Of a stretch of 64,000 nt of DNA, positions 17,390-60,300 are shown in pieces. The translations under genes and the position numbers were made by a program. Under the pieces are notes generated by a model. That model was not told the DNA's origin and searched no databases. It was given only the letters and a program-made list of their open reading frames with translations. Source of the DNA: Spirochaetia bacterium (lineage in GTDB: Bacteria; Spirochaetota; Spirochaetia; CADAEX01); contig CAXXHA010000036.1 of NCBI GenBank assembly GCA_963662265.2, positions 96,001-160,000 on the forward strand, written 5' to 3'. Position 1 is the stretch's first letter. Each line of letters opens with the position of its first letter.

Positions 17390-17417
17390 GACATTGAAAA
17401 AACAGATGGAGAATGTG

Positions 17418-20344: not shown

Positions 20345-20346
20345 TA

Positions 20347-25181: not shown

Positions 25182-25201
25182 AATAATCAGGTGAGTGAAA
25201 A

Positions 25202-37363: not shown

Positions 37364-38311
37364 TTAAGAATGATTTTTAAAATACCCAATTGTTTTTCTT
37401 AATCCTTCTTCCAGACTTACTTTTACTTTCCAGTTGATTTCTTTTTCTGCCAGATCAGTAACAGGACACCGCCTTTTGGGATCATCCTGAGGCAGGGGCA
37501 TAAATGTTATTTCTGATTTGCTTCCGGTTATTCTAATTACTATTTCAGAAAGCTCTTTTATTGTAACCTGATCCGGGTTTCCTATATTTACAGGACCCGT
37601 GAAATTATCCCGAGTCTCCATTAAGCTAATCATTCCAACTATTAAATCATCCACATAGCAGAAACTCCTGCTCTGGCTCCCATCGCCGTAAATTGTGATA
37701 TTTTTATTTTTAAGAGCCTGCATTATAAAATTACTTACAACACGGCCGTCATCAGGGCGCATTTTTGGGCCATAAGTGTTGAATATTCTCATTACTTTGA
37801 TTTTTACATTATCCTGTCTGAAGTAGTCAAAGAACAATGTCTCTGCGCATCTTTTACCTTCATCGTAACAGGCCCTTATTCCTATTGGATTTACAGATCC
37901 TTTATAATTTTCAGGCTGAGGATGTATTTCAGGATCTCCATATATTTCCGAAGTTGATGCCTGGAGGATTTTTGAATTTGTTTTTTTTGCAAGTTCAAGC
38001 ATGTTAACGGAACCTATTACAGATGTTTTTGTTGTCTGTACCGGATCATATTGATAATGTACCGGAGAAGCGGGACAAGCCAGATTATATATTTCATCAA
38101 TTTCCATATTCAGGGGCTCTGTAATATCATGTTGGAGTAATTCAAAATTAGGATGTTCCAGCAGAGCCTGAATATTTTTTTTATTGCCTGTTGAAAAATT
38201 ATCAACACATATTACATTGTGCCCATTATCTACAAGTTTTCTGCAAAGGTTGCTCCCTAAAAAGCCTGCACCGCCTGTGACCAGTATTTTCTTTTTCATT
38301 AAATTTCTCAT
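37364..38311 (-). CDS. uxs: UDP-glucuronate decarboxylase (UDP-xylose synthase) family SDR
   Basis: [62 protein letters not shown]. Confidence 0.92.
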
Positions 38312-38424: not shown

Positions 38425-39591
38425 ATGAAACAAAAAAAGCTGAAAAACAATATAAATATTTTTTCATTTCTAATAATCATGTCTTTCATTTTTGCTGTAT
38501 TATTGCCGGCATCTGTATCTGCAAAGGAATATTTTCTCGAAGACTGGCAGTGCTATGTAGATATGCCGCAGGGACTTGATCCGCTTGGAATGACAAAAAC
38601 AAAAGCAACATTCGGAAACAGCAAGGAAAATGTCTTTTTCCAGGTAAAGGTCTATCCTGCAGACAAGTACAGTACTGCGGATGATATATTCAGGGATATC
38701 AAAAATCAGCTGAGAGCGGAAGGGGATGGATATACGTTCAAGTACAACGGAAATGATTCAGTTTTTGCTGATATAAGTTTCAGTACAGATCTTGCATCTT
38801 ACAGGGCATACAGTGTTTTTATAAACAGCGGCAAATATGATATAGCTGTGCTTTCATTCTGCGAAAAAGAGATTTATGATGATGCCCATTTTTATATACT
38901 ATCTGCGCTTGATTCATTTTCAGATTCATATTCTGCCCTTTATTCACCGGGACCTGTAAGCAGCTTTTTTGAGCAGACCGGGAAAAAATCACCGCTTCTG
39001 GAGATTGCAGTGCCGGTTGGTAATGCAAAGTTTGTATTTGAAGCAGACGGCAGATCGGTAGAGGCTGCCGAGATAACAGCCGAGCGGGAAGCGCGGGTCC
39101 TTGCATTATTTAAACCGGAAGATACTGATGCGTGGAGCCGGTTTTACAGGATGATATACCGGGATAACTACAAGAGGATAGATGCCCTTTTTTATACTTT
39201 AAGAGATAATCTGCTCCGTGGGACTAAAGACCCTGAGGAAATATCAAAAAAGCTTCTTTCATGGCTTCAGAAATTTTCATATTCAAGAACAGGTACTATT
39301 GCGGATTTTTCCCCTCCATTGACAGCGCTTAAGGACTATTCTGCCGACTGTGATTCGCTCGGGATTTTATATATTATTCTTCTCAAAAAGCTCGGGATAG
39401 ATGCTATTCTGATGGTCTCGTCCGAGTATTCCCACTCAATGGCTGCCGTGGATGTTGGGGGTAATGGCGCCCGGTTTCCGTATAAGGGGAAGAAATATCT
39501 TGTGGCGGAGCTCACAAAGGATGTAGCTCTTGGACAGATAAATGCGAAGATGGCTGACCCTGCAAAATGGCTGGGGATTGAGTTTAAGTAG
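38425..39591 (+). CDS. Exported protein with C-terminal transglutaminase-like domain
   Basis: Signal peptide; DCDS, SHSMAAV, YLVAELT (Cys-His-acid triad pattern). Confidence 0.7.
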   Translation: MKQKKLKNNINIFSFLIIMSFIFAVLLPASVSAKEYFLEDWQCYVDMPQGLDPLGMTKTKATFGNSKENVFFQVKVYPADKYSTADDIFRDIKNQLRAEGDGYTFKYNGNDSVFADISFSTDLASYRAYSVFINSGKYDIAVLSFCEKEIYDDAHFYILSALDSFSDSYSALYSPGPVSSFFEQTGKKSPLLEIAVPVGNAKFVFEADGRSVEAAEITAEREARVLALFKPEDTDAWSRFYRMIYRDNYKRIDALFYTLRDNLLRGTKDPEEISKKLLSWLQKFSYSRTGTIADFSPPLTALKDYSADCDSLGILYIILLKKLGIDAILMVSSEYSHSMAAVDVGGNGARFPYKGKKYLVAELTKDVALGQINAKMADPAKWLGIEFK

Positions 39592-40447
39592 GGGGTATAA
39601 ATCCCCGGCCTTCCATGTTAAGCTGTCTTGCTGCTTCCCATATTTCCGGCCACCAGAAAAGCATTTCCCCGCATTTTTTGATATAATGCTGAAATAAAGT
39701 AAGAGCTTTTTTTTTGTTTTCCATTTTCCTGAGTTCAGCGGGGATTACTGATAGATCCGATAAAGCTTCCTGGATTAATAATTCTTTATAATTAAGCATA
39801 TCTTTTATCCACCATTCAGGACTTCGCTCGTGAAAATCAAACAGATAATTTATATGTGTTATTAGACTTTTTATATATCCTAACTGAATCAGCTTTAGTT
39901 GTTCTTCAAAATCTGAAATATTAAGATTTCCGAATTCCTGAAACCTCTTACCTGTTTCTTTCAAACGGTTTTCACCTGGAGGATTCAAAAACTCTGATGT
40001 CATTTTTCTGATCAAAAGTGATGAATAAACTCCTGTATCTAATGAAACATCTTTGAAAGAGCTTTCAGAAAAAGAGAGTTTTTCTGCCGGATTATGAAAA
40101 AGGGCATAGGGAATATGCATAGTCAATCCGTATTCAAAGCATCTGTTGAGAAGTATTCCAAAATTCGTATCTTCTCTTCTTCCAAGAGGCAGACATGGAG
40201 GAGGAATTCTTCTGTTATCAGTTGAATATGTTCCTCCCATGAGGAAATCCCCTCTGTCCATTATATAATCCATTGTTGAATTAATATTAAATCCGTCTTT
40301 TTTGATGTTATTGTAATCATTAATATTATCAAAGAAAATTCTTTCTTCCTCCTGTAAAAGAGGCAGATAAGGATTTTGATACCATCTTCCGCCGCAATAA
40401 CCTGCAGAGATTGTCTGAATAATAAGATTATTTTTCTCAATTAACAT
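39584..40447 (-). CDS. C-terminal part of RRE-like/GT-A-fold enzyme B, copy 1 (frameshifted from 40441..41379)
   Basis: Colinear with the C-terminal half of intact paralog 44895..46706 (AGYCGGRW, GRREDTNF, WWPEIWE). Confidence 0.75.
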   Translation of the reverse strand: MLIEKNNLIIQTISAGYCGGRWYQNPYLPLLQEEERIFFDNINDYNNIKKDGFNINSTMDYIMDRGDFLMGGTYSTDNRRIPPPCLPLGRREDTNFGILLNRCFEYGLTMHIPYALFHNPAEKLSFSESSFKDVSLDTGVYSSLLIRKMTSEFLNPPGENRLKETGKRFQEFGNLNISDFEEQLKLIQLGYIKSLITHINYLFDFHERSPEWWIKDMLNYKELLIQEALSDLSVIPAELRKMENKKKALTLFQHYIKKCGEMLFWWPEIWEAARQLNMEGRGFIPPT

Positions 40448-41379
40448 TGCTGTGTTTGAGGGAATATTATATAATGAAATATCATTTGGATTAATACTTG
40501 ATATGCTTTCCCTGTTATTCTTTTAAATTCATCTATCATATTATAATTACTTTTAATTTTTAATTTATCAGATAGCAGTGTAATTTCCGGAGTAAATAAA
40601 GGTTTTGATTGATATTGTTCAGTTAGTATAAACTGAAATTTACTTTTTTCTTTTTTGGAATAGAATATATATTCAATATCATCATCGCTTGAATAGATTC
40701 TATATCCTGCAGTTGCAAGAAGAAGAGCATTTCTGTTGCTGCCTGTTGATTTGGCATTAAATAATTTCCCGTTTGTTGACATTAAAAAATCTGTGAGTTC
40801 TTTTATTTTATTATTACCAAGCCTTTTTATTATCTCTTGAGACAGATTTTTCTTTTTCCCCATATCAAAATGCAATATTCTACCGGGATAATCTATGCTT
40901 CTGTCTTTTATTATTTTTGTTGTTAAATTTAATTCTTTACTGGAATCTGTATCATCACATATTATAATCGGTATTTTGTCAGCATAATAATGGGGAGAGT
41001 GTATACGGCAATCAAGCCATCTTTTAATCATGTTTGGGCGATTATAAGTAACACAACAGGAAATGAGATCATTGTTTTGATGATATGAAGTATTATTTGA
41101 ACTACCTTTTATTAAGTTATTCTCTTTTCTTAAAAAACCGAATTTTATCCATTTATTTAATATTTCTCCTAATAATGAAGAGGATATTCCGGAGAGTTCT
41201 GATTCTTTTAAAATTTCTCCATGCTGTAATAATGTTTTACATCCGGAAAGTGACATTAAGAGTTCTGCTTCAAAAGCACTTATTATATGAGTAGTATCAT
41301 CATTTAAATTTTCAGCAAAGAATCTGTTTTTACCGGCTTTGATAAAATTGAAATATGCTGAGTAATATTTTTGTTCCAA
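40441..41379 (-). CDS. N-terminal part of RRE-like/GT-A-fold enzyme B, copy 1
   Basis: TYNRP, IICDDT, GSNRN, SSDDD; one frame change near 40505-40512 joins it to 39584..40447. Confidence 0.75.
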   Translation of the reverse strand: MEQKYYSAYFNFIKAGKNRFFAENLNDDTTHIISAFEAELLMSLSGCKTLLQHGEILKESELSGISSSLLGEILNKWIKFGFLRKENNLIKGSSNNTSYHQNNDLISCCVTYNRPNMIKRWLDCRIHSPHYYADKIPIIICDDTDSSKELNLTTKIIKDRSIDYPGRILHFDMGKKKNLSQEIIKRLGNNKIKELTDFLMSTNGKLFNAKSTGSNRNALLLATAGYRIYSSDDDIEYIFYSKKEKSKFQFILTEQYQSKPLFTPEITLLSDKLKIKSNYNMIDEFKRITGKAYQVLIQMIFHYIIFPQTQQC

Positions 41380-43163
41380 TATTTTATTTTCTCCCGGATG
41401 TATTTATTTCTAATGCAGCTTTCCATATAGCTGGCCAGTTTTTTTATTAATGATCCGTAATTACTGAAAAATAATTTATATTGTTTTATTGCTTTCTCTG
41501 TTGAGTATTTTTTTCTGAATTCTGCAGGCAGTGAATTTGTTTTAATTACAGATTGTTTTTCAAGTAATTCAATATATTCTGCAGCATCAGATGCCCAATG
41601 CCGGGGCTTGTGATTATATTGTTCAAGCAGCCTTTCAATCTGTTCAATAATTTTACATACATATTCCATCCATTTTTTATGGCAGAATGCGATGAAATCA
41701 TTATCAGAAAGATTTGAAAATGTTATTAAACTATTTCCAACTTTTTCATAATTGTTTGATACTGGAAATAGATCTCCGTAGTAAATTAAACTATCGATAA
41801 TTAGATTTGTGATAAGTCCAAAATCTGCACTTGTGTCTTGATAGGTTTCATCTGACATTTTTTTCTTATTGGAAAAATCATGAAATATTGAGAAAGGCAA
41901 ATGCCCTATCAAACTGCAGTTATCCAGACCCTGAAGTAAAGATGCCCAGATGCCATCCTGATTTCTTCCGTTTGGAGGAAAAGGAGGTACCATAACTTCC
42001 AGATTAATTCCTGTAAGTGCTGCTGCATAAAACGGAAACCTGCTGAGAAGGATATTATTAGAGTGCAATGTAGTAAAAGGATTTGCTTTCAGCATGGAAT
42101 AATCAGACTTTTTTTTATATTCTTTTTTTCTTGTTGAAGAAGAATTTAAATAAATACCATGGGGGCGGCTGAACCATTTTCCTCCATAAATACCTGTAAT
42201 AACAGTTGTAATCATGCTGCTTTCTTTTACTAAAGCAGATGTCATTTCCGGGGAAGAATCTTTATATTGTACTGATTTCCCCTTTTCAATGTGGCGATTT
42301 AAAAAATCATTGGTTTTTTCCCCAAGAATATCTGATATACTTGATATCAAATCAATTTCAACAGGTTTAAAATGTTTTTTTACTGTTTCCATATTGCTGA
42401 ATATGTTTATATCCGGAATTTTGTTTTTTGCTAATTCAATTTCACTTTTATTATCATTATGCGAAAGCGGCTCAAACAATATATCATCATCAAAACAGAT
42501 TATTTTTTTCCCTGAAAGCTTTAACAGCGAATTATTTCTGTTTCCTCCTGTTGCCGGGAGGAAGGATAGATCAGGATCTCCTGATAAAGCATACTCAATA
42601 AGTTCACTGCTTATACCCTTTTTCGATGTTTGTTTTTTTAGTAAATTTAGAAAATGATTTTTTTCTGATTTCCCGAAATAAAATGTTTTTATTTTATATT
42701 CTTGTCCAATAACTCCAGTAGTTTTTCTGTTCAATGATTGAGTATAAGCGTCCTCCGAATCATCAAAAACATTAATAGTTGAATTTTTATGTCTTGAATA
42801 AATATTTTCAGCTATACTTTTCAATGCACTTTCCAGTAATTCAGGTCTATTACAGGTTATAGCTGCCAGTTCGATATCATGATTTTGATTACCGGTATTT
42901 TTTAAATCAGGCAGCTGAATAATCAGATTATTTCCTGTAATTTCTTCCAATATTTCTTTGCCAATCCCCGTATGAAGATAATCAGATATTTCACTTTTAA
43001 ATTTTTGTATTGGTTTTAATCCTGACAGGCGGGAATATATTAAAGCACTTTCTGTTTTAATAATTGAAGTTTTTTTAGATAGAAAATTATATAAAAAATA
43101 AAAATCAGGATCTGCTGCAAAAAAAGCAGCAGATCCTGGAAGATAATAGTTTTTTTTATTCAT
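41304..43163 (-). CDS. RRE-like/GT-A-fold enzyme A, copy 1 (true stop probably ~41384 after correcting an A7 run)
   Basis: TCNRP, VFDDS, GGNRN, CFDDD, GRNQDGIW; the alternative frame at 41439-41445 restores NWPAIWK, matching the paralog's NWPDIWD. Confidence 0.78.
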   Translation of the reverse strand: MNKKNYYLPGSAAFFAADPDFYFLYNFLSKKTSIIKTESALIYSRLSGLKPIQKFKSEISDYLHTGIGKEILEEITGNNLIIQLPDLKNTGNQNHDIELAAITCNRPELLESALKSIAENIYSRHKNSTINVFDDSEDAYTQSLNRKTTGVIGQEYKIKTFYFGKSEKNHFLNLLKKQTSKKGISSELIEYALSGDPDLSFLPATGGNRNNSLLKLSGKKIICFDDDILFEPLSHNDNKSEIELAKNKIPDINIFSNMETVKKHFKPVEIDLISSISDILGEKTNDFLNRHIEKGKSVQYKDSSPEMTSALVKESSMITTVITGIYGGKWFSRPHGIYLNSSSTRKKEYKKKSDYSMLKANPFTTLHSNNILLSRFPFYAAALTGINLEVMVPPFPPNGRNQDGIWASLLQGLDNCSLIGHLPFSIFHDFSNKKKMSDETYQDTSADFGLITNLIIDSLIYYGDLFPVSNNYEKVGNSLITFSNLSDNDFIAFCHKKWMEYVCKIIEQIERLLEQYNHKPRHWASDAAEYIELLEKQSVIKTNSLPAEFRKKYSTEKAIKQYKLFFSNYGSLIKKLASYMESCIRNKYIREKIKYWNKNITQHISILSKPVKTDSLLKI

Positions 43164-43171
43164 AAAACAAA

Positions 43172-43976
43172 TCAGCAGTAAAATGTGTAATAGGTAAAAG
43201 ATATATCTGTTTTTGTTGCACCTGGAAGGATTTCAAATGTTTCTGATACTGCTACATCTGAGCCGGCAGAGATATATTCAGAGCTCCTTGCAAGTATTTT
43301 CATTTTTCTTCCGGGAAGCATATCAATATATTGATATGGATAAGGAGAAGGTGCTCCGAATAAATATTCTTCCATTTTTATATTAGCTGGTATACTGTAT
43401 CTGTCGAAATTTATACCTGATCCGGTTATTTCAACATAGTTATTGAAAACATATTCATCAAGAAGGAGAAAATAAACTTCTGATCCAAAACTACCTGATA
43501 GATCTACTGATAGAGAAGCATTTGCAGCCTGTTTTAACATAAGTGATACATTTGTGTTTTCTCCTTCTGCTACTGTAAACGGAAAAGATAAACCAGCTTC
43601 TTTCATATACCAATCTTCGTTTGGAGTGCTGTATTCTTCAAAATATTCTGCAAGCAATTCCAGTTCTGTTTCTGAAGGTACTCCTGTTACTGTTACAGAA
43701 CCTCCTGTATCGGTATTGCTGTATGTGAATTCAACAGGACCAGAAACAGAGATCTGTTCAGGGTAATCTGAATCATATGATATTTCTGAAGCTGTTTGAG
43801 TAGTTTTCATATCAGCTGAACTGAAAAATTTTAATTTTAAAGTTATAGTCCCCGGAGCAGATGCTTTACTTACAGGCAGATTAAATGTAATTGTACCGCT
43901 TTTTGAATTTTGTATCTTCGATGTAGCAGGAAAGAAAAAGACTTGAAATTAATAATATTAACAATAATTTTTTCAT
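43172..43976 (-). CDS. Beta-rich lipoprotein of cassette 3 (one frameshift near 43907-43912)
   Basis: Hand translation gives MKKLLLILLISSLFLSC, then after one indel NSKSGTITFNLPVSKA...SADMKTTQ, joining ORF 43172..43810. Confidence 0.75.
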
Positions 43977-43995
43977 AAATGATTAACCCCTTTTA

Positions 43996-44682
43996 TTATG
44001 ATGGTGCATATGTTTCCCAGTCAACCGTAACAGTTCCGGGATCCTGAGTTGTGCTTGTATTAATAGGAGGAATATCAGGATTTGTATTATTAATCTGGGT
44101 TGATGTTTCAACAGTAAATGTTTCATTAACTGTTTCCACAGCTGTAGCAGGGGAAGCATACCCGCTTCCGGAGACAGAAGAAGAATTGCCGCCGCTAACT
44201 AATGTTTTCTGTCCGATTTTGTTTTTCTGTTGTATTTTCCCTTTTTCAACATCAATATCACCTTTAGCGCTGCCTTCAAAAACCGTGCCCCGTACTGCTG
44301 CGGTTGATACAGGTGTCATCAAAGTAAAGTCATGTCTCAGCCCTGTTGAAGTTTTTACATTAGCCTTGATTCTGCCAAGTTTGAGATTCAGCCGGGTGTT
44401 TACAGTATCGCCTGATATAACAAGCTCATCGACAGACATCCTTGTTAGCGGTTTTATGAAAATAGTTGATGACCCGCTTAAATCAAGCTCTGCAGATGAT
44501 TTGAATCCTGTAGAAATAACAGAACCCTGAGGAATTGTGTTGCCGTTTACTGCTGTAACCCAATTTCTCCCCGGTTCCTTTATTTCAACTTTTCCTTTTA
44601 CTTTTGTTATTGTTATAAGATCTGCTGAATATAGAGGAGAAGAAAAAACAATAATTAAAAGTATTAACAAGAAGTACTTCAT
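43996..44682 (-). CDS. Exported FecR-like domain protein, cassette 3
   Basis: Signal peptide MKYFLL..YSA, KVKGKVE, ISTGFKSSAEL, LNLKLGRI, TPVSTAAVRGTVF; Thr/Pro-rich tail. Confidence 0.82.
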   Translation of the reverse strand: MKYFLLILLIIVFSSPLYSADLITITKVKGKVEIKEPGRNWVTAVNGNTIPQGSVISTGFKSSAELDLSGSSTIFIKPLTRMSVDELVISGDTVNTRLNLKLGRIKANVKTSTGLRHDFTLMTPVSTAAVRGTVFEGSAKGDIDVEKGKIQQKNKIGQKTLVSGGNSSSVSGSGYASPATAVETVNETFTVETSTQINNTNPDIPPINTSTTQDPGTVTVDWETYAPS

Positions 44683-44894
44683 TCCTGCCTCCACTTTATT
44701 AATATTAAATAAATATAATTATTATACAAATTTTTAAACTGTTTCAGATATGAAAATTATATAATTGTTTTTCTTAAAATGAAATGTATAAATAATTGTT
44801 TTCTTTAAAAAAACACATTTTATTTATAACATAGGAGGTAATTGCTCTAAAATCCGTTAACTATGGATGTGTTAAAATAAATTACAGTATTTTC

Positions 44895-46706
44895 TTATTT
44901 TAAATTATTCAGGTTTATTATACTCCTTCCTTCCATGTTCAACGTTTTTGCAGTTTCCCAGATTTCCGGCCACCAGTAGAGCATTTCCCCGCATCTTTTA
45001 AGATAGTTCCTGTAAATACAAAGAGCTTCCTTTTTTGTTACGAAGTTTCTGAATTCCTCAGGAATAACTGAATCTGATGAAAGGGCTTCTTTTTTCAGCA
45101 AATTGCAGTAATTTTCCATATCCTCTGCCCACCAGGAAGGTTTTTCTTCATAAAGATCAAGAAGGTAATTTATATGGTTTATTGTTCTTGTGAAATATCC
45201 AATCTGTAAAAGTTTCAGCTGTTCTTCGAAATCTGGCAGGCTGAATTTTCCAAACTCCTCTAATAATGTCCCAAGTTCTTTAATACGGGTTTTCCCGCCG
45301 GGATTGATAAACGATTTTGTCAGTTTTTCAAGGATGAGAGTTGAATATACTCCTGTCTGCAATGACACATTGTTAAAACTCTCTTTTAGAAACGGCGGTT
45401 TTTCATCCGGATTATGATACAACGCATAAGGTATATGGATTGTAAGTCCAGGTTCAAGGCAATTATGCAGTATAATTGCAAAGTTTGTATCATCACGTCT
45501 CCCCCTCGGAAAACATGGCGATAGCAGTTTTTTGTTATCAACACAAAAAGTACCGCCCATTAAATAACTGTCATTGTGAATTATATAGCTGTCAGAAGAT
45601 TTTATATTTAATCCGTTATCTCTGATTTCCCTGTATTTTTCTGAATCATGAAAATAATCTCTTTCAGGTCCCTGCTGAAACAGGGAGAGGTAAGGATTCT
45701 GAAACCATCTGCCTCCGCAGTATCCGGCGCCTATTGCTCTAACAGATAACTTGTTTTTTTCCATCTGCATTGCAGTTTCTTCTGTCAGATCTTCAAGTGA
45801 TATAAAATCCTTTTTCATGATCTCAGAATTCAATAAACTGATATTGGATTCAAAAAAAGTGAGTAGTTTGAAGTCCTTATTTTGAACAGTATTATTTTTT
45901 AATGTATTCATGTCAGGATAAAAAGTGGCATCTGAGTTGAAATCCCTGGCATACTGGTATCTGTCAGGCTGAATATTTTTTCTTGAAAAGAATCTGTATT
46001 CCATATCATCATCGCTTGAATAGAGATTGAATCCTGCAGATGCAAGTATCATTGTGTTTCTGTTGCCGCCTCTTGTATTATGCACGTATAAATCGTTGTC
46101 AACTGCAAGTGTGAAATCCACTATGTACTCAGGCAGTTTATCATTTGCAGCTTCATTTATCAGGTTTGAAAACTGCTTTTTATCATCATAGTTTATAAGT
46201 ACAATTTCTCCCGGATAATCTTTATTTCCATCGAATATAATTTTTTTGTTTTTGTCTGAAATTTTATAATCTGTTGTGTCATCGCATATTATAATAGGTG
46301 TTTTCCGGTTTCTGTATTCATCGTTACTAATTCTTGACCGGAGCCATCTGTCAAGCATACCGGGGCGGTCACAGGTTATACATCCTGATACGATTTTCTG
46401 TTTTGAAGCAAGTGTATTATTGTTGTTTTCAGGTTTGAATAAAAGATTTTCACTTCTGAGAAATTCATTGTTAATCCATTTATTAAAAATATCCATTATT
46501 ACAGATTGAGATAAGTCATGACTGTCAGTTTCCAAAACACTTTCAAGGTGTTGATTCAGTGTTTTGCATCCTGATAAATTTATTAAAATGTCTCCTTCAA
46601 ATCTGCTGATTACATGAGAAGTTTTATCATTGTTATTAATTACAAAATATGTCTCTTCTCCCGCTTTTTTGTATCCCAGAAACGCCGGATAATACTTCTC
46701 TGTCAA
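44895..46706 (-). CDS. RRE-like/GT-A-fold enzyme B, copy 2 (intact, 603 aa)
   Basis: N-terminal 3-strand/3-helix segment; TCDRP, IICDDT, GGNRN, SSDDD, GRRDDTNF, IPYALYH. Confidence 0.8.
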   Translation of the reverse strand: MTEKYYPAFLGYKKAGEETYFVINNNDKTSHVISRFEGDILINLSGCKTLNQHLESVLETDSHDLSQSVIMDIFNKWINNEFLRSENLLFKPENNNNTLASKQKIVSGCITCDRPGMLDRWLRSRISNDEYRNRKTPIIICDDTTDYKISDKNKKIIFDGNKDYPGEIVLINYDDKKQFSNLINEAANDKLPEYIVDFTLAVDNDLYVHNTRGGNRNTMILASAGFNLYSSDDDMEYRFFSRKNIQPDRYQYARDFNSDATFYPDMNTLKNNTVQNKDFKLLTFFESNISLLNSEIMKKDFISLEDLTEETAMQMEKNKLSVRAIGAGYCGGRWFQNPYLSLFQQGPERDYFHDSEKYREIRDNGLNIKSSDSYIIHNDSYLMGGTFCVDNKKLLSPCFPRGRRDDTNFAIILHNCLEPGLTIHIPYALYHNPDEKPPFLKESFNNVSLQTGVYSTLILEKLTKSFINPGGKTRIKELGTLLEEFGKFSLPDFEEQLKLLQIGYFTRTINHINYLLDLYEEKPSWWAEDMENYCNLLKKEALSSDSVIPEEFRNFVTKKEALCIYRNYLKRCGEMLYWWPEIWETAKTLNMEGRSIINLNNLK

Positions 46707-48503
46707 AACTGAGTTTCCTTTTTCTTGTTAAATTTTAAAGCCTTATCCCATATATCAGGCCAGTTTATCAGCAGGTTCCCGTAATCTCTGAAAAAACATT
46801 TATACTGTTTTATTGCGTCATCAAGTGAATAATTTTTTCTTAATTCTTTAGGAAGAGAGTTTTCTGGAACCAGCGACTGTTTTTCAAGGCGCATAATATA
46901 TTCTTCAGTATCCCTTGCCCAGTATTTTGGTTTTCTTTTATTTTCTGCCAGTTTTTTTTCAAGGTCCGCAATTGCATTGCCGGCATACTCGAGCCAGATT
47001 TTATGGAAAAAAAATAAAAAATCTTCATCTGATATCTGTGACAGCCAGACAAGCTGGTTTCCAAGCGCCTGATATGATATTTTATTAAGCTTCGATCCTA
47101 GATTTTTTCTCAAGTGTTCAATTGCCAGGACAGTGATTATCCCGAATCCAGCTGATGTATCAGTGTAATCTTCTTCAGTGAAAAAAGATTTATTACTCAT
47201 TTCATGATAAATTGCCAGTGGTATATGGGATACAAAGGTATTCTGGTTTAAAGCAAGCATTACTGCTATCCAGATACCATCCTGGTTCCTTCCATAGGGG
47301 GGGGTAGGGGGGGAGTATTTCACCTGAATCTATCCCCATTGCTGTTGTGATAAAAAAAGGGGCCCTGCTCAGGGTAAGATGCTCAGGCAGCATCAGGGAT
47401 ATAGGATTTTCCTTTATTTTACTGTATTCTGATTTGTTTCTGAAACCGCAGTATCTGTCCGGTTTGTTGTTGAAATAAACACCGAAAGGCCGGCTGAACC
47501 ATCTTCCGCCGTAGATTCCTAAGAATGCAGCTTTAATCGAACTGTCCCATCTTTTGAGAGAAAAGAAGGAGTCCGGTCTGAAATTGTCAGTTAATAATTC
47601 ATTATTAGATGTTACTGTTTTCTCAATAATTTCTCCGACACTTTTTCCAAGGATATTATTTATATATCGTAAAGGGTCGATTTCAGAAGATATAAGATTT
47701 TTTTTCAGCCTCTGTTGTTTTACAGAAAACATGGCTTTCAGGATCTTTGAAGTTTGATATTTCAAGATCATCTTCTAAATTACTGTGGGTAAAAAAATCG
47801 TATTTAGTATCATCATCGAAACTGATTATTTTACAGCCGGCAAGTTTTAGTAAAAGCAGTATTCCTGTTTCCCCCCCGGACCTTTGAGTATTGGATTGTC
47901 ATGAGACCCCATAACTGCAAATCTGATAATGCTTTTTATCTGTGCCTGTATTTTTCCTTCATACAGTAGCTTTAATAATTGATGTTTCTCCTTAATTCCG
48001 AAGTGTGAAATATTTAATCCGTAATTATTTTTAATATTGATACATAAAATCTTATTTTGCATCGATTATTTTCTGTGAAGATGAGTCGTCAAAAACTATT
48101 ACAGGGAGGTTTTTATAATCCGAATGTATTTTCTCTGCAATGCTGTTTAATGCTGATGAGAGAAGTTCCGGCCTGTCTGATGTGATAATTGATAATGCTG
48201 ATTCCTGTTCTGTTTCTGAAAAGTGTATTTTACTGCTTTCAAGCGGATATAACAGATTGGTTTCCAGTAATGATGAAAATATATAATCAATATCTTTATT
48301 CTCTGATCCTGTATTATATATCTTTTCAAGATCAATTATATGCTGACTGATTGTTTTTATGCCGGTCAGTTGCGAGTAATATATTGGCATCAGTTTTATC
48401 TATGAATGATGTTTTTCCTGTATTGTAATTATAGGAAATAAAACAATCAGGTCCCGTGGGAAAAAATGCCGGCAGAACCTGGTATGTATTTTTTTTTGAC
48501 CAC
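46703..48503 (-). pseudogene. RRE-like/GT-A-fold enzyme A, copy 2, broken by several frameshifts (possibly assembly errors)
   Basis: GTG at 48503 after AGGAG; fragments 48052..48390, 47847..48062, 47202..47771, 46703..47323 are colinear with 41304..43163 (TSDRP, VFDDS, SFDDD, GIYGGRWFSRP, GRNQDGIW). Confidence 0.75.
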
Positions 48504-48532
48504 TTTCTCTCCTGTCTGAAAATCTGAATCTG

Positions 48533-49380
48533 TTAACTTAACCAGGAAAAGCTGGTGCTGTTAGTGTATTGGTAATATGTTACAGGCACTGAATCAGACA
48601 ATCCCGGTCTGAGCTCAAATTCATCGGTTATTCCTAAATAATCGTACTGACTAATTGTTGCACTTTTACTTACAAGTGCACGTGTTTTTCCTTCCCGGAA
48701 GAATCGTCTCTGCAGCATCAAATGTAACAGTTGCAGTATTTCCTGATACAGTTCCGGGTGTTCCTGTGGGATTGTCCAGGTTGAAAGTATAATGAGAATA
48801 GCTTGTATTTATTGATGAGATTTTATTACCGCTGAAATTTACAATTAATAACAAATGATCCGGGTCATAGAGCCTGAAATGGGAAGCTGTATAGGTTGAA
48901 TGTTTGGGGTACACTCATTCCCCCTGCATAACCTGTCGGGATAAGTGGTATTACAACTTCTGTTGAATCTATTCCATTAACTTCAAACACATCGGAAATC
49001 CCTGAGTATGAGTGGAAATAAATACTTCCCTTATCAGATCTGGTGCTGTAACGGTTCTATCAGCAGGGTCAGCGCGCTTGATACAGGAACATTCATAAGA
49101 GATAAATCGCCTGAATCGCCTGTAAACGGAATATAGGAATTAGCAAGAAGCGGTGAAGGGAAATCTTTCAGATATGTTATATCTGATGTCTTCTCGAAAT
49201 ATGAATCAATATTTCCGGAATATACAGCTACTTTTAAAAATGCCGTCAAATCCTGCCGGCGCTCCTTTTGCTGTTGTAGTTAATTTGATTGATACAGTCC
49301 CTGTTGAAGATTCCGGAGCCTGGTAACATGAAAAATGTAAGGACAGAATATACTAAAATAATTATTAAATATCTTTTCAT
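48533..49380 (-). pseudogene. Beta-rich lipoprotein of cassette 2, frameshifted
   Basis: MKRYLIIILVYSVLTF(S)CYQAP after removing one T; fragments share ITYLKDFP, GISDVFEV, LPGRK, GITDEFELRPG with the other two lipoproteins. Confidence 0.7.
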
Positions 49381-49398
49381 TTTATACTCCTTTACAGG

Positions 49399-50065
49399 TT
49401 ACTGTATTTCCCAGGCAACATGTACTGTTCCTGTTGTGGGCGGCGGTGGAACAATTATTGGCGGGGATATCCTGCATCAGGCTGTGTTGATGTCTCAACA
49501 GTAAAGCTTTCTGTGACTGTTTCAACTGCAGTTGCAGGTGCAGTATACCCTGTTCCTGAAACAGACGATGATTCGCCTCCTGAAACAGTTGTTTTCTGAC
49601 CTATTTTTATTTGTAAAACTTATTCTGCCTGTAACAACTTCCAGTTTCCGTACAGATGACTCGAAGACTGTACCTCTTACAGCAGCTGTTGATACAGGTG
49701 TTTTTAATGTGAAATCATGTTTAAGCCCTGATGAAGTTTTTACATCAGCCTTTATTCTTCCCAGCTTGAGGTTCAGCTTTGTATTTACCTTGTTTCCGCT
49801 TATTGCAAGTTTGTCGACAGACATTCTGGTAAGCTGTTTTATGAAAACAGTTGATGAATCCGCTCAGGTCAAGCTCTGCATTAGATTTAAAACCTGTGGA
49901 AATGACAGATCCTTCAGGGATAATTCCCCCTTTTTCAGCTTTTACCCATGCTTTCCCGGGTTCCTTGATTTCTACTTTTCCGTTTACTGTTTTTATTGTT
50001 ATAAGATCTGCCGAATATAGAGGTGTTGCAACAATAATAACCAGTATTAAGAGTATATATTTCAT
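49399..50065 (-). pseudogene. Exported FecR-like domain protein, cassette 2, frameshifted
   Basis: ORFs 49745..50065 and 49522..49824 plus a hand-read tail (..PPPPTTGTVHVAWEIQ*) closely match 43996..44682. Confidence 0.78.
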
Positions 50066-50119
50066 TTATCCCTCCGTCTTAATACATCTAAAGGAAATAA
50101 TTTTATAATTGTATATCAC

Positions 50120-50136
50120 TATTATAGGACTTTTTC
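50120..50136 (-). promoter_or_regulatory. Putative promoter (-10 TATAAT with conserved upstream flank) for cassette 2
   Basis: GAAAAAGTCCTATAATA on the minus strand; 16/17 match to 51849-51865. Confidence 0.5.
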
Positions 50137-50237
50137 CCTATAAATAAAAATAAAATATTAATGACTGCGTTTTAAAGCCTGATGAATCAGTTGGATGGAA
50201 TTTTACTTATTTATTATTATTGCATTTGTTTTAAGTT

Positions 50238-51069
50238 TCAGTCAACTATCGGTTGGTAATAATAGTAGTTAACCGGAACTGTTACTATAACGCCGGGCTT
50301 AACTTCAAACACATCAGATATGCCGAAATATGAGCCGGGAGTAAGGACTGGAGTGTTTACAAGATCTGATACAATTAACTGCATTTTTTTCCCTGCAACT
50401 GCAGTACTGGTAAATGTCATTGTATCGGGAGAACCGTCATTCTCGGAATTCTCATTTACCATAATTTGTTGTTGTCGGTTCACTGTTGAATGTTATATTT
50501 CCTTCAGAAGGTACATTTAAATTAATATATGAGGCCATGTCTTCAGGTGAATAAGCGCTGACAAAATCTTCTCCTGTGAATCCTGAGTGTTTATTTATCT
50601 TCAGAGTAGCTTTAGCTGTTTGTAGTATTGTGATTGAAACATGCAGAGGAGTGCTGTTTTCCAGAGTAAAAGGGTATGAAAGCCCTGCATATGCAAGGTA
50701 ATAGGGGTTATCAATACCTTCGCCGTAAAATTCAGCAAGAAGATTCAGCTCTTTTTCGGGCGGGATTCCTGAAATTAATATCTCTCCTGTATCTCCATCT
50801 ACAGGAATAGTTATTTCATCATGCCCGTTAATAGGTACTGTTTCCGGAAAATCTGAAAGATATGATATCCCGTTTACCGGATCCTGATTAACTTTGAATT
50901 CTCCTGAATTAAAGAGTCTTAAAACTAATTCTGTTTCGCCTCTGACCGGAGGTATTTTGATTACATCTGTGTCCTATTATTACTGATAATAGCCCCCTGA
51001 TTAGAAAACAGGTGCCTGGTAACAGGAAAAAAGTGAGAATATCAGCAGTAATAACAGTGTTTTTTTCAC
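50238..51069 (-). pseudogene. Beta-rich lipoprotein of cassette 1, frameshifted
   Basis: GTG start, MKKTLLLLLIFSLFSCYQAP; hand-read middle frame ISYLSDFPE..GIPPEKELNLLAEF..AGLSYPFT matches the cassette-3 lipoprotein (ISYDSDYPE..GVPSETELELLAEY..AGLSFPFT). Confidence 0.72.
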
Positions 51070-51084
51070 TATATACTCCATATA

Positions 51085-51774
51085 TTATTCCAGCGGGGGA
51101 TCCAGTTTTCCCCAGTTGAGTATTATATAACCTGAAAAGGACGAATCCTTATGATTTGAATCCGGTAGTGAACCTGCCTCTTCCGGAATGGTTGAGATGT
51201 CTGTAGTGAAATCCTCATTGTTTGTGTCATTTTCCGGTTCAGGTGAATTATAGCCTTTGCCTTTTACTTTTGAAGAGTTACCTCCCCTTACAGAAGTACC
51301 CTGGCCGATTTTATTTATAAATTTTATTTTTCCTGTTTTAACTTCGAGGTTTCCATGTGCAGAAGCTTCAAAAACGGTCCCTTTCACAGCAGCCGTGGAA
51401 ACAGGTGTTATCAGTTTAAAGTCATGTTTCAGACCTTCAGATGTTTTTACTTCTGCCTTAATCCGTCCCAGTTTCAGGTTAAGTTTTGTGCTGACTTTTT
51501 CTTTTTTTATTTCAAGTTTATCGACTGACATCCTGGTAAGCTGCTTAATGAGGATAAGCGAAGAATTTCCGAGATCCAGTCTTGTTTCCGATCTGAATCC
51601 TGTTGAAACGATTGTCCCCTCCGGTATGTATGATCCTGAAAATGCTTTTTCCCAGTTTTTCCCAGGTTCTTTTACTTCAACTTTTCCTGTTATATCCATT
51701 ATTTTTATAAGATCAGCCGGAAAGAGAGATGAGGTTGAAATGCAAATAACAAGAAATAAGAAGAAATATTTCAT
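51085..51774 (-). CDS. Exported FecR-like domain protein, cassette 1
   Basis: MKYFFLFLV signal peptide after GGAG RBS; STGFRSE, LNLKLGRI, TPVSTAAVKGTVF. Confidence 0.82.
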   Translation of the reverse strand: MKYFFLFLVICISTSSLFPADLIKIMDITGKVEVKEPGKNWEKAFSGSYIPEGTIVSTGFRSETRLDLGNSSLILIKQLTRMSVDKLEIKKEKVSTKLNLKLGRIKAEVKTSEGLKHDFKLITPVSTAAVKGTVFEASAHGNLEVKTGKIKFINKIGQGTSVRGGNSSKVKGKGYNSPEPENDTNNEDFTTDISTIPEEAGSLPDSNHKDSSFSGYIILNWGKLDPPLE

Positions 51775-51848
51775 TACTGTCTCCATGGAACAGTTTGCTA
51801 TTCTGAATTTCACTCAGCTGTTTGATCGAATTGAGATATTTATGTATA

Positions 51849-52848: not shown

Positions 52849-53400
52849 ATGAAACAGGCTGCTTTATCGTTTTTGAAAAAGTTCAATCTGTTTTTTATGC
52901 TTCTTTGCTGTTTTCCTGATGCCGTTCCGGATGATTTCAGGCCTTATTCTGACTTTAATGCTTCAGACATGAAAATCTGGTATGACAGGGCAGACCTTGA
53001 AGAGACAAGGGATATGTGGATGGCCTCTGCCAATATCGGTATGTCAGTTTTAAGCCCTGAAGAACGGGATAAATCACTTCTGGTTATGAAAGAGCGTCTT
53101 GCCTCATGGCAGTGGAACAGAATTGAAGAGAAAGTATGCAGGCCTGATATCCAATCGCTTTTATCAGAAATAGAGAACAAAAAGAAGGACTATCTTTATC
53201 TTGTTGAAGAAGGAAATCTGAAATTCGATGAGAATGGTACCCCGATCTTTAAAGGGCTTTCTGGTCTTGATAGCGATTTGACTTCATGGGAAAACGAAAT
53301 CAGGTTATTTGTTGGTGATCTTTTCAATAACTGGGAGAGATGTGCAAGGATAAAATATGATGAAATTCTATCTCTGGAGAAAAGGTATTGGAAAGGGTGA
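52849..53400 (+). CDS. Giant polymorphic-toxin-like protein, fragment 1 (N-terminus with signal-like leader)
   Basis: GGAGG RBS; joins the next ORF through an A-run indel near 53380-53383. Confidence 0.65.
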   Translation: MKQAALSFLKKFNLFFMLLCCFPDAVPDDFRPYSDFNASDMKIWYDRADLEETRDMWMASANIGMSVLSPEERDKSLLVMKERLASWQWNRIEEKVCRPDIQSLLSEIENKKKDYLYLVEEGNLKFDENGTPIFKGLSGLDSDLTSWENEIRLFVGDLFNNWERCARIKYDEILSLEKRYWKG

Positions 53401-54952
53401 AAAAGCTGTACTTGATGCATCATTCAATGAATATAAAAACAGCATAAAGAAGGAATTTGAATACCTTTATCTTGCCGGCAGAAAGAGCCTTACAGCAATG
53501 AGGAGCAAAGACAGCTTTTCAATGAAAAAGGAGAGCGAAGATAAGGGGGCTGAAGTTGAAGCTGAAAAGAGGATCGGGGAAATACAGAAAAGCTTAAAAG
53601 AAGCATCAGATACCCTGGAGAAAAACCTCACACTCATGAAAAGCTTAAATACTGAAGAAGTGGGAGTAAGGATAAACGAGTGGGAGGATGACTTTAAGAA
53701 AAGCTTTGAAAAGGGGCTCAGAAAATGGGAGGAGGCAGAAAAAGATTTTTTGAGTGAAAGAATCAGATGGGAAGAATACGGCAGGGAAGGATATCTTAAA
53801 GCAGAGAATGAATGGGACAGGGCAATAGAGAAGTTTACCGAAGCAAGGCGATCCTGGTCTGTAGAGATGAAGGGAATAATAGATGAGGGGAGAACGTACT
53901 GGCAGAAAAGAGAAGTAAGCTTTTTTGAAAGCTACAGGGAAGTAACAGAAGGTATGGAAGAGGCTTCATTGAAGGAAAAGATGAGGTTTGAAAAAGAACT
54001 CACCGGTTACCTGTCTGTTTACAGGGAAAGCAGAAACATAGAGGGGCTGGCTAAAGAAAATATTGAGTATCTTACCGAAGAAATAGCACGGATTGAAAGA
54101 TACAAGGCTGATAAGCAGAGAACTGTAAGCAGAGTTAAAAACCGGATTGATGATATTGAAGATGATATAAATGATTATGAAAGATACATAAAAAGAGCGG
54201 TTGATGAAATTGAAAATGATGATGACAGAAGAGGATTTGATTTCAGATTTCTGTTTATAAGAATATATAGACAGAAAATAGATGATCTGAAACCGCTTCT
54301 TCCCCCTCTTTATAATCAGTATAACCTTGCAGTGGAGATAAGGGACAGGAAAAACAGTGAGCTTTCTTCATACAGGACAGAACTTGCATTCTGGGAAAAC
54401 GCATCAGTTAACTACAAAACAGCCCGAGAGGCAGCAGAAAACAGCCTTATATCACTTGAAGAACAAATCAAGAGCGGAGTCTACGGTGGAAATGAGTTTG
54501 ACAGTGAGCTTAATATATTAAAAGAAAAGAGGGATATCTTAAAAAGAAAACTTGATATAGCACAGCATGTCTATGAATACTCACTTGATAATACATCAGA
54601 CAGGAGAGAAAAGCAGATACAGAAAAGAAATACAGTAAAGCACTTTCTCTTTTCAGGGGAAAAGAGGCTGAATATGAAAAAAGTGTTACCGAACTTGATG
54701 ACTTTATTGAAAATATTCTGGGCGAAAATGAAAAAGATCTTGAAGATAAGAAAAACGAGCTTGGTCTTGCTGAAAAAAAGCTTGAAGATGCGAGGATTGA
54801 ATATGAGGCTGCAATGGAGATCTTCCGGCTTAAGGATTCTAGTTTACTCGAGACAGCAATATCAAATCTTGAAGATGAAAATGAGGATTTCTTTGATGAG
54901 GAACTTGACAGCATATGGAGCGACTACTTTCTTCATATGGAAAAGCTTCTGA
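53357..54952 (+). CDS. Giant protein fragment 2 (coiled-coil; correct frame probably ends ~54610)
   Basis: Charged heptad helices with periodic Trp; frame change at GAGAAAAGCAG near 54606-54616. Confidence 0.65.
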   Translation: MMKFYLWRKGIGKGEKAVLDASFNEYKNSIKKEFEYLYLAGRKSLTAMRSKDSFSMKKESEDKGAEVEAEKRIGEIQKSLKEASDTLEKNLTLMKSLNTEEVGVRINEWEDDFKKSFEKGLRKWEEAEKDFLSERIRWEEYGREGYLKAENEWDRAIEKFTEARRSWSVEMKGIIDEGRTYWQKREVSFFESYREVTEGMEEASLKEKMRFEKELTGYLSVYRESRNIEGLAKENIEYLTEEIARIERYKADKQRTVSRVKNRIDDIEDDINDYERYIKRAVDEIENDDDRRGFDFRFLFIRIYRQKIDDLKPLLPPLYNQYNLAVEIRDRKNSELSSYRTELAFWENASVNYKTAREAAENSLISLEEQIKSGVYGGNEFDSELNILKEKRDILKRKLDIAQHVYEYSLDNTSDRREKQIQKRNTVKHFLFSGEKRLNMKKVLPNLMTLLKIFWAKMKKILKIRKTSLVLLKKSLKMRGLNMRLQWRSSGLRILVYSRQQYQILKMKMRISLMRNLTAYGATTFFIWKSF

Positions 54953-57333: not shown

Positions 57334-60300
57334 TAAGAAAGATGAGATAAGAACACTCACTGGTGGATGCGATGGGGAAATTGTATCTTTTGATGATTTT
57401 ATTATCTCACTTGATGCAGTTTCTGGGGAACTCCCGGATGAAGCAGGATCAGGTTTCAGGGATCTTCTTGAAAGCATATATGACTCGCTTACAGACGAGG
57501 ATAAAAATACAAGCTATAACCTGTCTGTAAAGACATTTGAAAAACTCAATGAGTACTTAAGCTGTAAGATATCTGAACTCAACATAATTACCGAGAAGCT
57601 TGAGAAAGAACGGGTAAGTCGTCTCAATAATTACAGGATATCCCTGAACAATCCTGAAGTCAGTTCAGATGAGGTCAAAAATCACTTCATAAATCTCTTT
57701 TTTGAATCAGAATACTCAACTTGCGAATCGTCGCAAATATCACTCTCCGAAGTTTTATTATCATATTCAGATTCTGACGACTTAAAAGGACGGGAAAGGA
57801 CTCTCTCCTTTGCAGCGAACGATGTAATGAAATACTTCTCAACTTCTCTAGATATAAAAAAGAGTGAGAATGATGAAAAGATAAAACTTCAGTACCTTGA
57901 ACTGAAGGATAAACAGGGACTTTTTGAATCTAGAATAGCAGAACTCTATGAGACAGGCGTAATTGAATGGAAGGTTGGTTTTACAAACCTTATCGGAATG
58001 AGGAAGAAGTGGAGAGATAATTTTCAAAGGGAAGCAATTCTTAAAGAAGAACTCTGGAAGAGTAAGTATAAAATATTAAAAGAAAACAGGAATAGCTGGA
58101 TAGAACAAAGTACAGCCGCAGTACAGAGGGGGGAGGCAGGGCGTCTTTCAAGGGAAATCGGGATAAACGCGGATAAACTCCTGTCAGAGAGCGAGATGAT
58201 TATAATACCTGACATTAAGAATTCTCCAGAACTTGATAACATAATTGAAGAGGTGACAGGGGCTGAGAAATTATCCTCTCTCATATCAGCTGCTTCCTTT
58301 TATTCGGCGAAGAAGGAGTCTGATAATATAACTCCTTCATCATACCTTCCTGAGATTGGAAGTTTCGGAGGAAACGATCTCCGGCTTGAAAGCTATGCAG
58401 AGAACTTATCAAGTGAAATAAGAAAAAGGGCAGCCCTGCTTGAGGCCCTGAAAATGGCAAAGACTGTAACAGATGTAGAAGACGGGATTCTTGAGAATAT
58501 AGAATCAGCCAACAGAAGTACAGAAAAGTCACTTGCTGATACGCTTGAAGGGAAAGGGTACAGGAAAAAAGGAAATATCTTCTCCCGGAAAGCTATAATA
58601 GATATGACACTTCTGGGAGGGATAGAAGAAGAGCTTCATGAGATTGAAGCCTATCATTATTTTACAGCGCCTGAATTTAAAACAGGTGCAGACCTTACAC
58701 GGGACTCATTATCCTCAATGAGCCGAAGGGAAATTGAATTAAAGGTTGAAAAAGCTGTTGCCAACCTTAAAAGATACGGAGAGATTATATTCGGAAGCAA
58801 AACTTCAAAGGAAGCTTCAGACTGGAAAGGGTTTGATGAAGAGTTTAAATCCTATGCAGGAAATGCTGAAAAGTCCTTCTCTTTATCGCGTCAGGCAACT
58901 AAATACAGAGACACAAAAGGACTTTTTTACATACACCTGGGATATGCCCCGGTAATGGACAGCAAGTCTCCCGAAGTTGTTAAAACTGAAGGATACGGCG
59001 AATACGGAAGAATCTATGAGCTGTTCTTCCGGAACGAGGCAAGGCTTGGCCGAGGTATTGCAAGCCTTGATCAGCCCTGGTATTCCCAGAAGCTCTGGGA
59101 TGATGACAGGGACAATGATGGGGAATCTGACGGACTATTCGGGGCACCCAGTGTCAGAAGCATGGGAAACATTGCAATGTCAGTTGTTTCAGGCGGGGCC
59201 GGTATGTGGGCTTTCGCAGTTAATATGATTGATGATGCTGCTTTCACTGCAATGGATATCGGAAGCGGAATAACAGACTGGGATGACGGGATGATGTCTC
59301 TGGGTAAGCAGACAACAGCCGGAGCTGTGACCCAGGGGCTTGGAAACCGGTTCAAGATAGAGACAGACTCATTTCTTGCCTCAGCTGCACATACAGGACT
59401 GAAAACAGCATCCACAAACCTTGCGACTACTGCGATAAACTCATTTGACTTTAATTCCAGAGGAATCTATTTCAGTACAGACACATTTAGACGAAACTGG
59501 CAAAGTGATCTTTACGGTAGAGGAGCAGTGCCCGGGTATATAAACAGCATGGGAACTGCAGGACTTGATTCAACACTTACAGGTTTCTACGGCAAGGATC
59601 TTTCTTGCGGTAAAGCGTTAAGCTCAACAATCGCAGGCAGCGCAGCAAGTATATATGAATACAACACTCTAGGTAGTACAAAGCTCAATCTGCTGAATTC
59701 ATCTGACCTCTTTTTCCGGAACAGTGGATTAAAAGACAGATTCGGAGGAACAGGTATCCTGGAAATGGGAATCGGAGACGGGGGAAGTTTATTCGAGTTC
59801 GGGATAAATGGCCAGAATATGAGTGCTTCTCAGATAACATCAGCTTATAAGGGTATAAATACATATTATCAGAATGCACGGATCTATTCATCCGGGCAGG
59901 AAAATATAAAGGATGCTAGAGTCGCGATGAGGGCTCTTTATTCCCGCAGCACTTCAGATGCTGCTGCATCGCTATTATACCGCAACCTGCTGTCAGGTAA
60001 GGATAATCTTGAAATCGACAAGTCTCTTGAAGGAAGAGCGCAGACTGTTAAAAACAGCAGCGGAGGAAGAACTGTTAAAGTTTCATCATTGGGAAATGAC
60101 TATTACAGCCGTCTTCACCTTGGTGTGGTTTTGGGACATGAAGCATACAGGGACGGGACAGATAATGGCAGAGAAGTACAGAAATCCGAGACAGTCGATG
60201 CTGTTTACAATCATACAAAAATGGCCCTTGATATGGAAAACGACTATACCGGGTTTATTGAATCTGATGAAGCATTGATAAAAGATTTATTGAGATTAAG

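Follow-up and report, generated by a model that had tools for sequence, protein, structure and literature searches.

GT75-related glycosyltransferase-fold enzymes with an RRE-like domain and their gene linkage to spirochaete lipoproteins ending in serine or cysteine

What does a glycosyltransferase-fold enzyme modify when it carries a domain resembling the peptide-binding RREs and no precursor peptide is encoded beside it? The question is raised by the window analysed here, a stretch of 64,000 nucleotides that is part of contig C36 of a Spirochaetia genome (G000). Three pairs of genes for a FecR-like exported protein and a lipoprotein lie on its minus strand, and two of them are followed by a pair of enzyme genes in the order B, A. 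Enzyme A2 (44895..46706, TTG start, 603 aa, intact) consists of an RRE-like domain at residues ~5-90 and a GT75-like GT-A core at ~100-590. It is preceded by its paralog B2 (46703..48503, several frameshifted pieces, ortholog of an intact 595-aa gene in L001), by lipoprotein 2 (48533..49380, several frameshifts, intact 288-aa ortholog in L001), which ends in Ser and is the proposed B2/A2 substrate, and by FecR-like protein 2 (49396..50065, frameshifted). The other complete set comprises FecR-like protein 1 (43996..44694, Pfam FecR E 8.2e-10), which has a Ser/Thr/Pro-rich tail and belongs to a general Spirochaetia module; lipoprotein 1 (43172..43976), with a signal peptide and lipobox, an N-terminal frameshift and a terminal Cys, the proposed B1/A1 substrate; enzyme B1 (41384..43163), frameshifted near its C-terminus; and enzyme A1 (39584..41379), split in two near 40507. 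The third pair, FecR-like protein 3 (51085..51813, Pfam FecR E 4.2e-8) and the frameshifted lipoprotein 3 (50238..51069), which ends in Asp, has no enzyme gene after it and serves as an internal control.

A2 is the sole intact ORF among the four enzymes, the others being broken by frameshifts. Since B1 and A1 have intact relatives (P0017, 592 aa, 98% identical, and P0010, 598 aa, 97-98% identical) and the B and A genes of G001 and G009 are intact and arranged as in the window, assembly error probably accounts for the three split enzymes; in G001, the last A ORF has a late start, at the catalytic core. Many frameshifts in AT-rich genes, with near-identical relatives intact, mark the whole region 39584-51813 as well as contig C1 of the same genome, and these are probably assembly indel errors. 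No further enzyme copies were found in G000 beyond the four of the window. The earlier note on this DNA had seen no short precursor ORF in the array, and we find none either: the six gaps printed, of 18-215 nt, are mostly AT-rich, and the remaining short ORFs are gene fragments or overlap genes.

The AlphaFold model of A2, built on a 148-row alignment, has a mean pLDDT of 95.8 and a pTM of 0.94. Residues 100-591 match OsUAM2 4-347 (Z 21.5, rmsd 3.8, 315 aligned) and MtdL 4-374 (Z 20.7, rmsd 3.8, 316 aligned); the next structural match reaches only Z 14.8, and Foldseek is in agreement. On this model, the core of A2 is a GT-A domain closest to the GT75 mutases and not an ordinary GT2 enzyme, SunS scoring Z 11.2 against 21.5 for OsUAM2. 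It has the Rossmann-like fold, a DxD motif (D232-D234) and a putative further metal ligand, H431 (kept at 0.99). A2 has no Pfam match, and a PDB sequence search with the A1 and A2 profiles gave nothing significant. Pfam RGP (PF03214) is found in none of 80 family members at E 0.1 and is also absent from G000, and PF00535 (GT2) matches 28 of the 80 weakly. The GT-A motifs listed in the earlier note are kept well beyond the window: TxxR, DD, NRN and DDD are conserved across the 148 rows (T111 0.95, R114 0.94, D142 0.97, N217 0.99, D232-D234 0.96-1.00), and D232-D234, H431, R403 and D406 together at 0.84-1.00, with R403 substituted in 10 of 18 close A-type rows. MtdL uses D109-D111, H287, R257, D260 (the proposed base) and a self-glycosylated R159 (PMC9937993). 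Mapped by motif spacing rather than by superposed coordinates, A2 D232-D234, H431, R403 and D406 would correspond to MtdL D109-D111, H287, R257 and D260, and the position of MtdL D87 to a conserved Gly (G213, 0.99). T111 is similar to MtdL T13, a GDP-selective residue. Arg at the sequence spacing of R159 is not conserved in the 148 rows. D332 occurs together with R366 in 85 of them and R/K333 with neither in 48, while both Arg positions never occur in the same row (0/148); the R333 type is that of the clade holding A and B of the window (this and the other family trees were built with FastTree). R159 may have a spatial counterpart in R366 or R333. Neither a signal peptide nor a TM segment is present in A2 or in any of the four proteins checked, whose highest 19-residue hydropathy is 0.97-1.44.

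The N-terminal domain of A2 (46437..46706) was described in the earlier note as a three-strand, three-helix unit with an L-[ST]-G-x-K-[TP] turn. The turn does occur at the N-termini of all four window enzymes, the text quoted there being that of A2, and the A2 model displays the layout as a winged-helix topology of ~85 residues at pLDDT 91-97, with strands 10-14, 19-24 and 29-34, helices 35-42, 50-60 and 67-79, and a closing strand 83-85 before the GT-A core. In HHalign, a 123-row N-domain profile matches a PqqD profile of 19 sequences end to end, in 65 columns (E 2.8e-4, probability 41%), whereas six control windows of the same protein reach a probability of 1.7% at most. Because the predicted strand-helix topology and the PqqD alignment, with near-zero control windows, coincide, an RRE fold for this domain is well supported. 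Lead-level Atlas matches to MftB and PqqD (0.78-0.80), Foldseek matches of the A2 model to LynD and McbBCD (E 0.011-0.015) and weak HMM matches of family members to Pfam PqqD (1/80, E 0.094) and TIGR04353 (3/80) were also obtained. A single-sequence model of residues 1-95 was uninformative (pLDDT 55.7, best fold match Z 3.3).

Both A and B types carry the RRE domain in the window, that of B1 being ~10 residues short (75/85 columns). In seven of seven further A/B pairs (G470, G489, G471, G490, G452, G540, G508), B lacks the domain and retains the catalytic motifs, and A carries the domain; in the A-type enzyme of G452 the RRE is kept and the DDD region and catalytic motifs are gone. Solitary enzymes without RRE are found in G339, G448, G464 and G476. 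Judging by domain content, the RRE domain is dispensable in the family. The only hints of a putative A/B heteromer come from the way in which RRE and catalytic motifs are divided over the two enzymes and from the G452 A-type enzyme. On a viral contig, a terminase large subunit gene directly precedes a further RRE-less member (L105:2473-3888).

In genomes of the spirochaete phylum, the constant neighbour of the enzyme is a lipoprotein, usually encoded directly upstream. They belong to several unrelated families (Ig-like/choice-of-anchor D, NHL, cadherin-like, collagen-repeat and unnamed). In 31 of 42 cases, the last residue encoded by the upstream gene is Ser or Cys: 14 of 19 when the bias was first noticed and 17 of 23 in loci gathered afterwards, which were picked by a FecR or enzyme match after the terminal-residue idea had been noted. 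Counted by hand, such a gene is present at least once in 27 of 35 genomes or contigs. Among control genes next to FecR without a family enzyme in sight, 4 of 43 end in Ser or Cys, in a sample that takes in some of the FecR matches, with 4-7 kb of sequence for most of them, and with tallies entered by hand; among all ORFs of G000 the count is 180 of 2323. The window repeats the pattern, lipoproteins 1 (Cys) and 2 (Ser) preceding enzymes and lipoprotein 3 (Asp) not. The tallies exclude eight enzyme loci without a scorable upstream gene (L009, L143, L144, L221, L249, L257, L258, L260), another three from metagenomes that look spirochaetal (L035 Cys, L044 Tyr, L045 Met) and control genes truncated at the end of a locus. 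Fisher p-values for the bias (1e-7 to 7e-10) are overstated because kin are not independent and the tallies were made by hand; the linkage still recurs across many branches of the enzyme tree and with unrelated putative substrates. Selenocysteine read-through after the terminal residue was rejected because the stops are a mix of TAA, TAG and TGA.

These data bear on the suggestion in the earlier note that the substrate is to be sought among the neighbouring exported proteins. The part concerning lipoproteins gains from the terminal Ser/Cys bias: the neighbouring exported lipoprotein is likely the substrate, and its tail is probably the missing precursor. The part concerning FecR does not stand. 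FecR occurs in 165 of 301 genomes of the class, versus 35 of 301 for the enzyme, and is therefore a general module; as a substrate or required part it was rejected, being missing at many enzyme loci and common without the enzyme. Of the 11 upstream genes without terminal Ser/Cys, four form one clade (G055, G405, G507, G547), three have a second lipoprotein inserted, with a Ser/Cys lipoprotein one gene further up, and the remaining four comprise two that end in Tyr, one that ends in Met and one with a penultimate Cys. One enzyme clade (L025:8561-9352, L140:8863-9504, L252, L259) follows lipoproteins that end in Trp, Lys or Phe, two of them with collagen repeats, and may have another acceptor. 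Sulfotransferase or sulfotransferase-like genes adjoin the glycosyltransferase in L143, L144, L080 and L266, so that a sulfated glycan is possible.

The Cys-ended control lipoproteins in G497 and G524 were predicted to be followed by an RRE-GT enzyme, but none was found (completeness 87% and 92%). After both of these, and after one lipoprotein in G507, there lies instead a gene of an unnamed 292-aa family with a GT-B fold, in which PF04101 (GT28 C-terminal) is detected on some homologs while three query-level scans gave no Pfam match. The family is present in 28 of 301 Spirochaetia genomes (loci L265:3775-4755, L266:4110-4997, L283-L312, and G000 contig C1 near 107500-108000) and follows NHL-type lipoproteins, mostly Cys-ended. 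Of the 25 genes scored upstream of its members, 17 encode a terminal Ser or Cys (15 Cys), among them the one on contig C1; five of 30 loci were not scorable or duplicate. Two of the four Ser/Cys-ended controls precede a GT-B family gene, leaving 2 of 40 for controls with neither family. By its gene context, the GT-B family is a candidate second C-terminal S-glycosyltransferase. That two unrelated nucleotide-sugar transferase folds track the same terminal residue points to glycosyl transfer and is the strongest argument for it.

The best reading, to which we give a probability of roughly 60%, is cytoplasmic O- or S-glycosylation of the C-terminal Ser or Cys of the upstream lipoprotein by GT75-related enzymes. 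It builds on the fold, the conserved motifs, the absence of export signals, the gene linkage and the terminal-residue bias described above. The enzyme would be a cytoplasmic, metal-dependent nucleotide-sugar glycosyltransferase that meets the unexported pre-lipoprotein encoded directly upstream and, using an NDP-sugar as donor, glycosylates the side chain of its terminal Ser (O-link) or Cys (S-link). From the motif spacing to MtdL, D234 and H431 would bind Mn, R403 the donor phosphate, and D406 would act as the base; Arg at 366 or 333, never both, may bind the terminal carboxylate, and the RRE would grip the substrate, still unfolded, by one strand. Where A and B are paired, B may be the constant catalyst, with A supplying the RRE or a second sugar. 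A complex prediction for a single-enzyme pair (P0040 alignment, Mn, GDP and the 153-aa lipoprotein of L242) scored 0.00 and speaks neither for nor against. As to the donor, the window encodes an NAD-dependent sugar epimerase/decarboxylase (37364..38311, minus strand) that scores below every NCBIfam cut-off and that we take, from its motif, to be UDP-xylose-synthase-like; it is a possible donor supply for the enzymes. UDP-xylose as the donor is not supported: among the loci examined, close homologs of this epimerase accompany the enzyme in only five genomes, and T111, as noted above, is similar to a GDP-selective residue of MtdL.

The same substrate and site could be served by other chemistry, namely a furanose passed through a GT75-type Arg intermediate, a glycosyl ester on the carboxylate, or a phospho-sugar or nucleotide. 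We regard this as unlikely, although the GT75 fold speaks for it, the D332/R366 pair (replaced by R/K333 in the 48 rows given above) recalls MtdL D195-R159 (PMC9937993), and pseudomycoidin bears a sugar-phosphate on its C-terminal Ser (PMC11912497). The requirement for Ser or Cys, however, indicates the side chain. Moreover, the GT28-like GT-B family has the same linkage, and we know of no mutase activity in it. Glycosylation of internal Ser/Thr, in FecR tails or lipoprotein linkers, or of a distant short RiPP precursor, with the terminal residue serving, for example, export, appears somewhat less probable still. FecR tails are indeed rich in Ser, Thr and Pro, family members do occur beside LanM, YcaO, ATP-grasp and lasso genes, and one enzyme clade has no terminal Ser/Cys upstream. 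Nevertheless, the distribution of FecR does not follow that of the enzyme, and paralogous lipoproteins without a following glycosyltransferase of either family are rarely Ser/Cys-ended.

Among relatives with solved structures, the closest are mutases that self-glycosylate an Arg (PMC9937993), which counts against a transferase. The enzymes might be free-standing NDP-pyranose mutases that supply furanose donors to other glycosyltransferases, with a vestigial N-domain; MtdL and UAM are the top structural matches, many members lack the N-domain, and GT2 genes or sugar epimerases adjoin some loci. We consider this improbable, given the absence of Pfam RGP, the Gly at what would be the MtdL D87 position, and a terminal-residue bias and carrier-domain fusions (below) that it leaves unexplained. 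A sugar-nucleotide-sensing regulator with a DNA-binding winged helix is very improbable. The fold is common to RREs and wHTH regulators (PMC7470986), but in A2 the strands precede the helices, as in PqqD, the median net charge of the N-domain is -1 (123 rows), individual ArsR and PadR sequences can be aligned in only 21-24 columns, and the domain is retained inside NRPS fusions.

The family is unnamed and large: a profile search returns 3155 representatives at E 0.001 and 969 at 1e-30, and the Atlas holds 24 unnamed look-alike clusters at 0.99. A plasmid collection searched with P0044 gave no match, and a search of viral contigs gave one locus. Outside spirochaetes, the analysis covered 78 loci, taken from the 80 best of 337 stretches that patterns of the main clade had retrieved, and a scan of 114 neighbours. 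Here the upstream gene is mostly not Ser/Cys-ended, and many loci have no interpretable neighbour. In L051, L071, L085 and L088 the gene immediately upstream is of the LanM or LanC-like type, and three of these loci have a C39 ABC transporter downstream. The most complete example, L071:4583-13031, is a class II lanthipeptide cluster with the enzyme between LanM and the C39 transporter and two LanA precursors, both ending in Cys. The lack of a precursor noted for the window array thus does not extend to this relative, which has true precursors. The lanthipeptides of L071, as of L051, L085 and L088, are candidate glycosylated products. Other RiPP-type neighbours are YcaO/SagC (L031), a B12 radical SAM protein (L028), an ATP-grasp maturase (L036), lasso B2 (L092) and LanC (L096). 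Candidate peptide substrates have a terminal Cys (L071), a terminal Ser (L053) or a Cys one residue from the end (L043, L103, L036, L084). Small Cys-rich proteins with a Sec signal are encoded beside the enzyme at L053:4747-5286, L043:5024-5533 and L103:3044-3535, an arrangement that recalls the logic of bufferins, here with a glycosyltransferase.

The whole RRE-GT unit also occurs as an NRPS terminal domain right after a carrier domain, in 7 of the best 150 matches (P0081, P0105, P0113, P0116, P0138, P0147, P0157) and in four loci (L058, L070, L099, L100). The carrier contexts are FkbH-T, A-T, A-KR-T or T alone, and two of three A domains preceding the unit have what we take to be a Ser-type signature. 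The NRPS fusions thus predict glycosylated seryl or glyceryl starter units. They would fit C-terminal glycosylation because seryl and glyceryl thioesters on carriers present the same beta-hydroxy-acyl end. In other bacteria, the RRE-GT unit would modify RiPP cores and carrier-bound seryl or glyceryl groups.

Cytoplasmic protein glycosyltransferases whose gene adjoins that of an exported substrate include GtfA/GtfB, an enzyme with a helper, HMW1C and TibC; these are GT-B folds that act on many internal sites and are not known to carry an RRE. Glycocin S/O-glycosyltransferases likewise carry, to our knowledge, no RRE, and the terminal Cys of glycocin F is reportedly glycosylated. The glycocin enzymes SunS, ThuS and GccA resemble the family in that a single cytoplasmic GT-A enzyme makes S- and O-links on a ribosomal peptide (PMC11912497), but they are GT2 enzymes with short bacteriocin substrates, and A2 lacks the Pfam match of a SunS-type GT2. 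An interchange of Ser and Cys, as proposed for the lipoprotein ends, is known for glycocin enzymes (PMC11912497); glycocin F itself ends in Cys (PMC5890784). TfpO/PilO and TfpM glycosylate a C-terminal Ser (TfpO) or Ser/Thr (TfpM), often on a substrate encoded nearby (PMC12645811). They differ in being periplasmic membrane enzymes that transfer lipid-linked glycans to pilins, whereas the family is soluble GT-A, encoded beside lipoproteins, with Cys able to replace Ser; the polytopic membrane architecture of O-antigen ligases is absent from the four proteins checked for hydropathy, and the A2 model has a GT-A fold instead. With the GT75 mutases MtdL and OsUAM2, the family shares the whole catalytic fold including the C-terminal helices, DDD, R-x-x-D and a late His (PMC9937993). 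It differs in sequence (10-11% identity), in the missing RGP match, in a core that is ~130 residues longer and joined to an RRE, and in its proposed acceptor, another protein.

RRE-Finder work reports fusions of RRE and GT as an uncharacterised architecture (PMC7470986, PMC12710340); in the text available, these are described as PF00535, without relation to GT75, lipoprotein substrates or NRPS fusion. The mycofactocin MftF model matches 9 of 80 family members weakly (best E 0.0019). In bufferins, RiPP-type enzymes also modify a precursor with a Sec signal peptide, but by MNIO oxidation of internal Cys in 60-70-residue cores (PMC11626156), and not by glycosylation of 150-770-residue lipoproteins as proposed here. 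No description of an RRE + GT75-like family, of GT75 linked to peptides or RiPPs, or of FkbH-NRPS with a glycosyltransferase domain was found in open-access text, subscription papers being mostly outside this coverage. Within that searchable text, the lipoprotein C-terminal glycosylation system combines features not reported together. That it amounts to an undescribed and widespread route, in which a GT75-derived RRE enzyme reads only a terminal Ser/Cys, a GT-B family has converged on the same residue and the RRE-GT unit is reused on RiPPs and NRPS carriers, is a tentative proposal to which we give slightly less than even odds.

S-linked glycosylation is so far known mainly from small bacteriocins, and C-terminal protein glycosylation from periplasmic pilin O-OTases. 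If the proposal is true, spirochaetes would have S-glycosylated surface lipoproteins and a new surface-protein glycosylation route, in which a soluble enzyme takes the last residue as its whole recognition rule. RiPP machinery would then act on full-size proteins, the GT75 fold would extend from mutases to peptide transferases, and protein glycosylation would be linked with RiPPs and NRPS through a single module. A function could be assigned to thousands of proteins in an unnamed family and to an NRPS terminal domain that lacks annotation, and a one-residue tag would be attractive for site-specific glycoengineering in E. coli.

Several other arrangements were seen in the course of the analysis. 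A recurrent Spirochaetia operon (L001:2839-5870 and 17583-20929; L048, L141, L142, L246, L254) encodes a small exported protein, a 440-aa barrel-like protein ending in Phe, a FecR-like protein and a lipoprotein; two of its parts have no Pfam names. From its sequence, the 440-aa protein looks like an outer-membrane barrel, and the operon is possibly a lipoprotein export or signalling module. Within the window, 15956-28300 holds in one run two outer-membrane-efflux/HlyD-type genes, two Big_5 Ig-domain proteins and two RND transporters. Coiled-coil-like long ORFs of 183, 531, 839 and 1369 aa, overlapping end to end and matching no Pfam family over cut-off, occupy 52849-61378 and are probably a single very large frameshifted gene.
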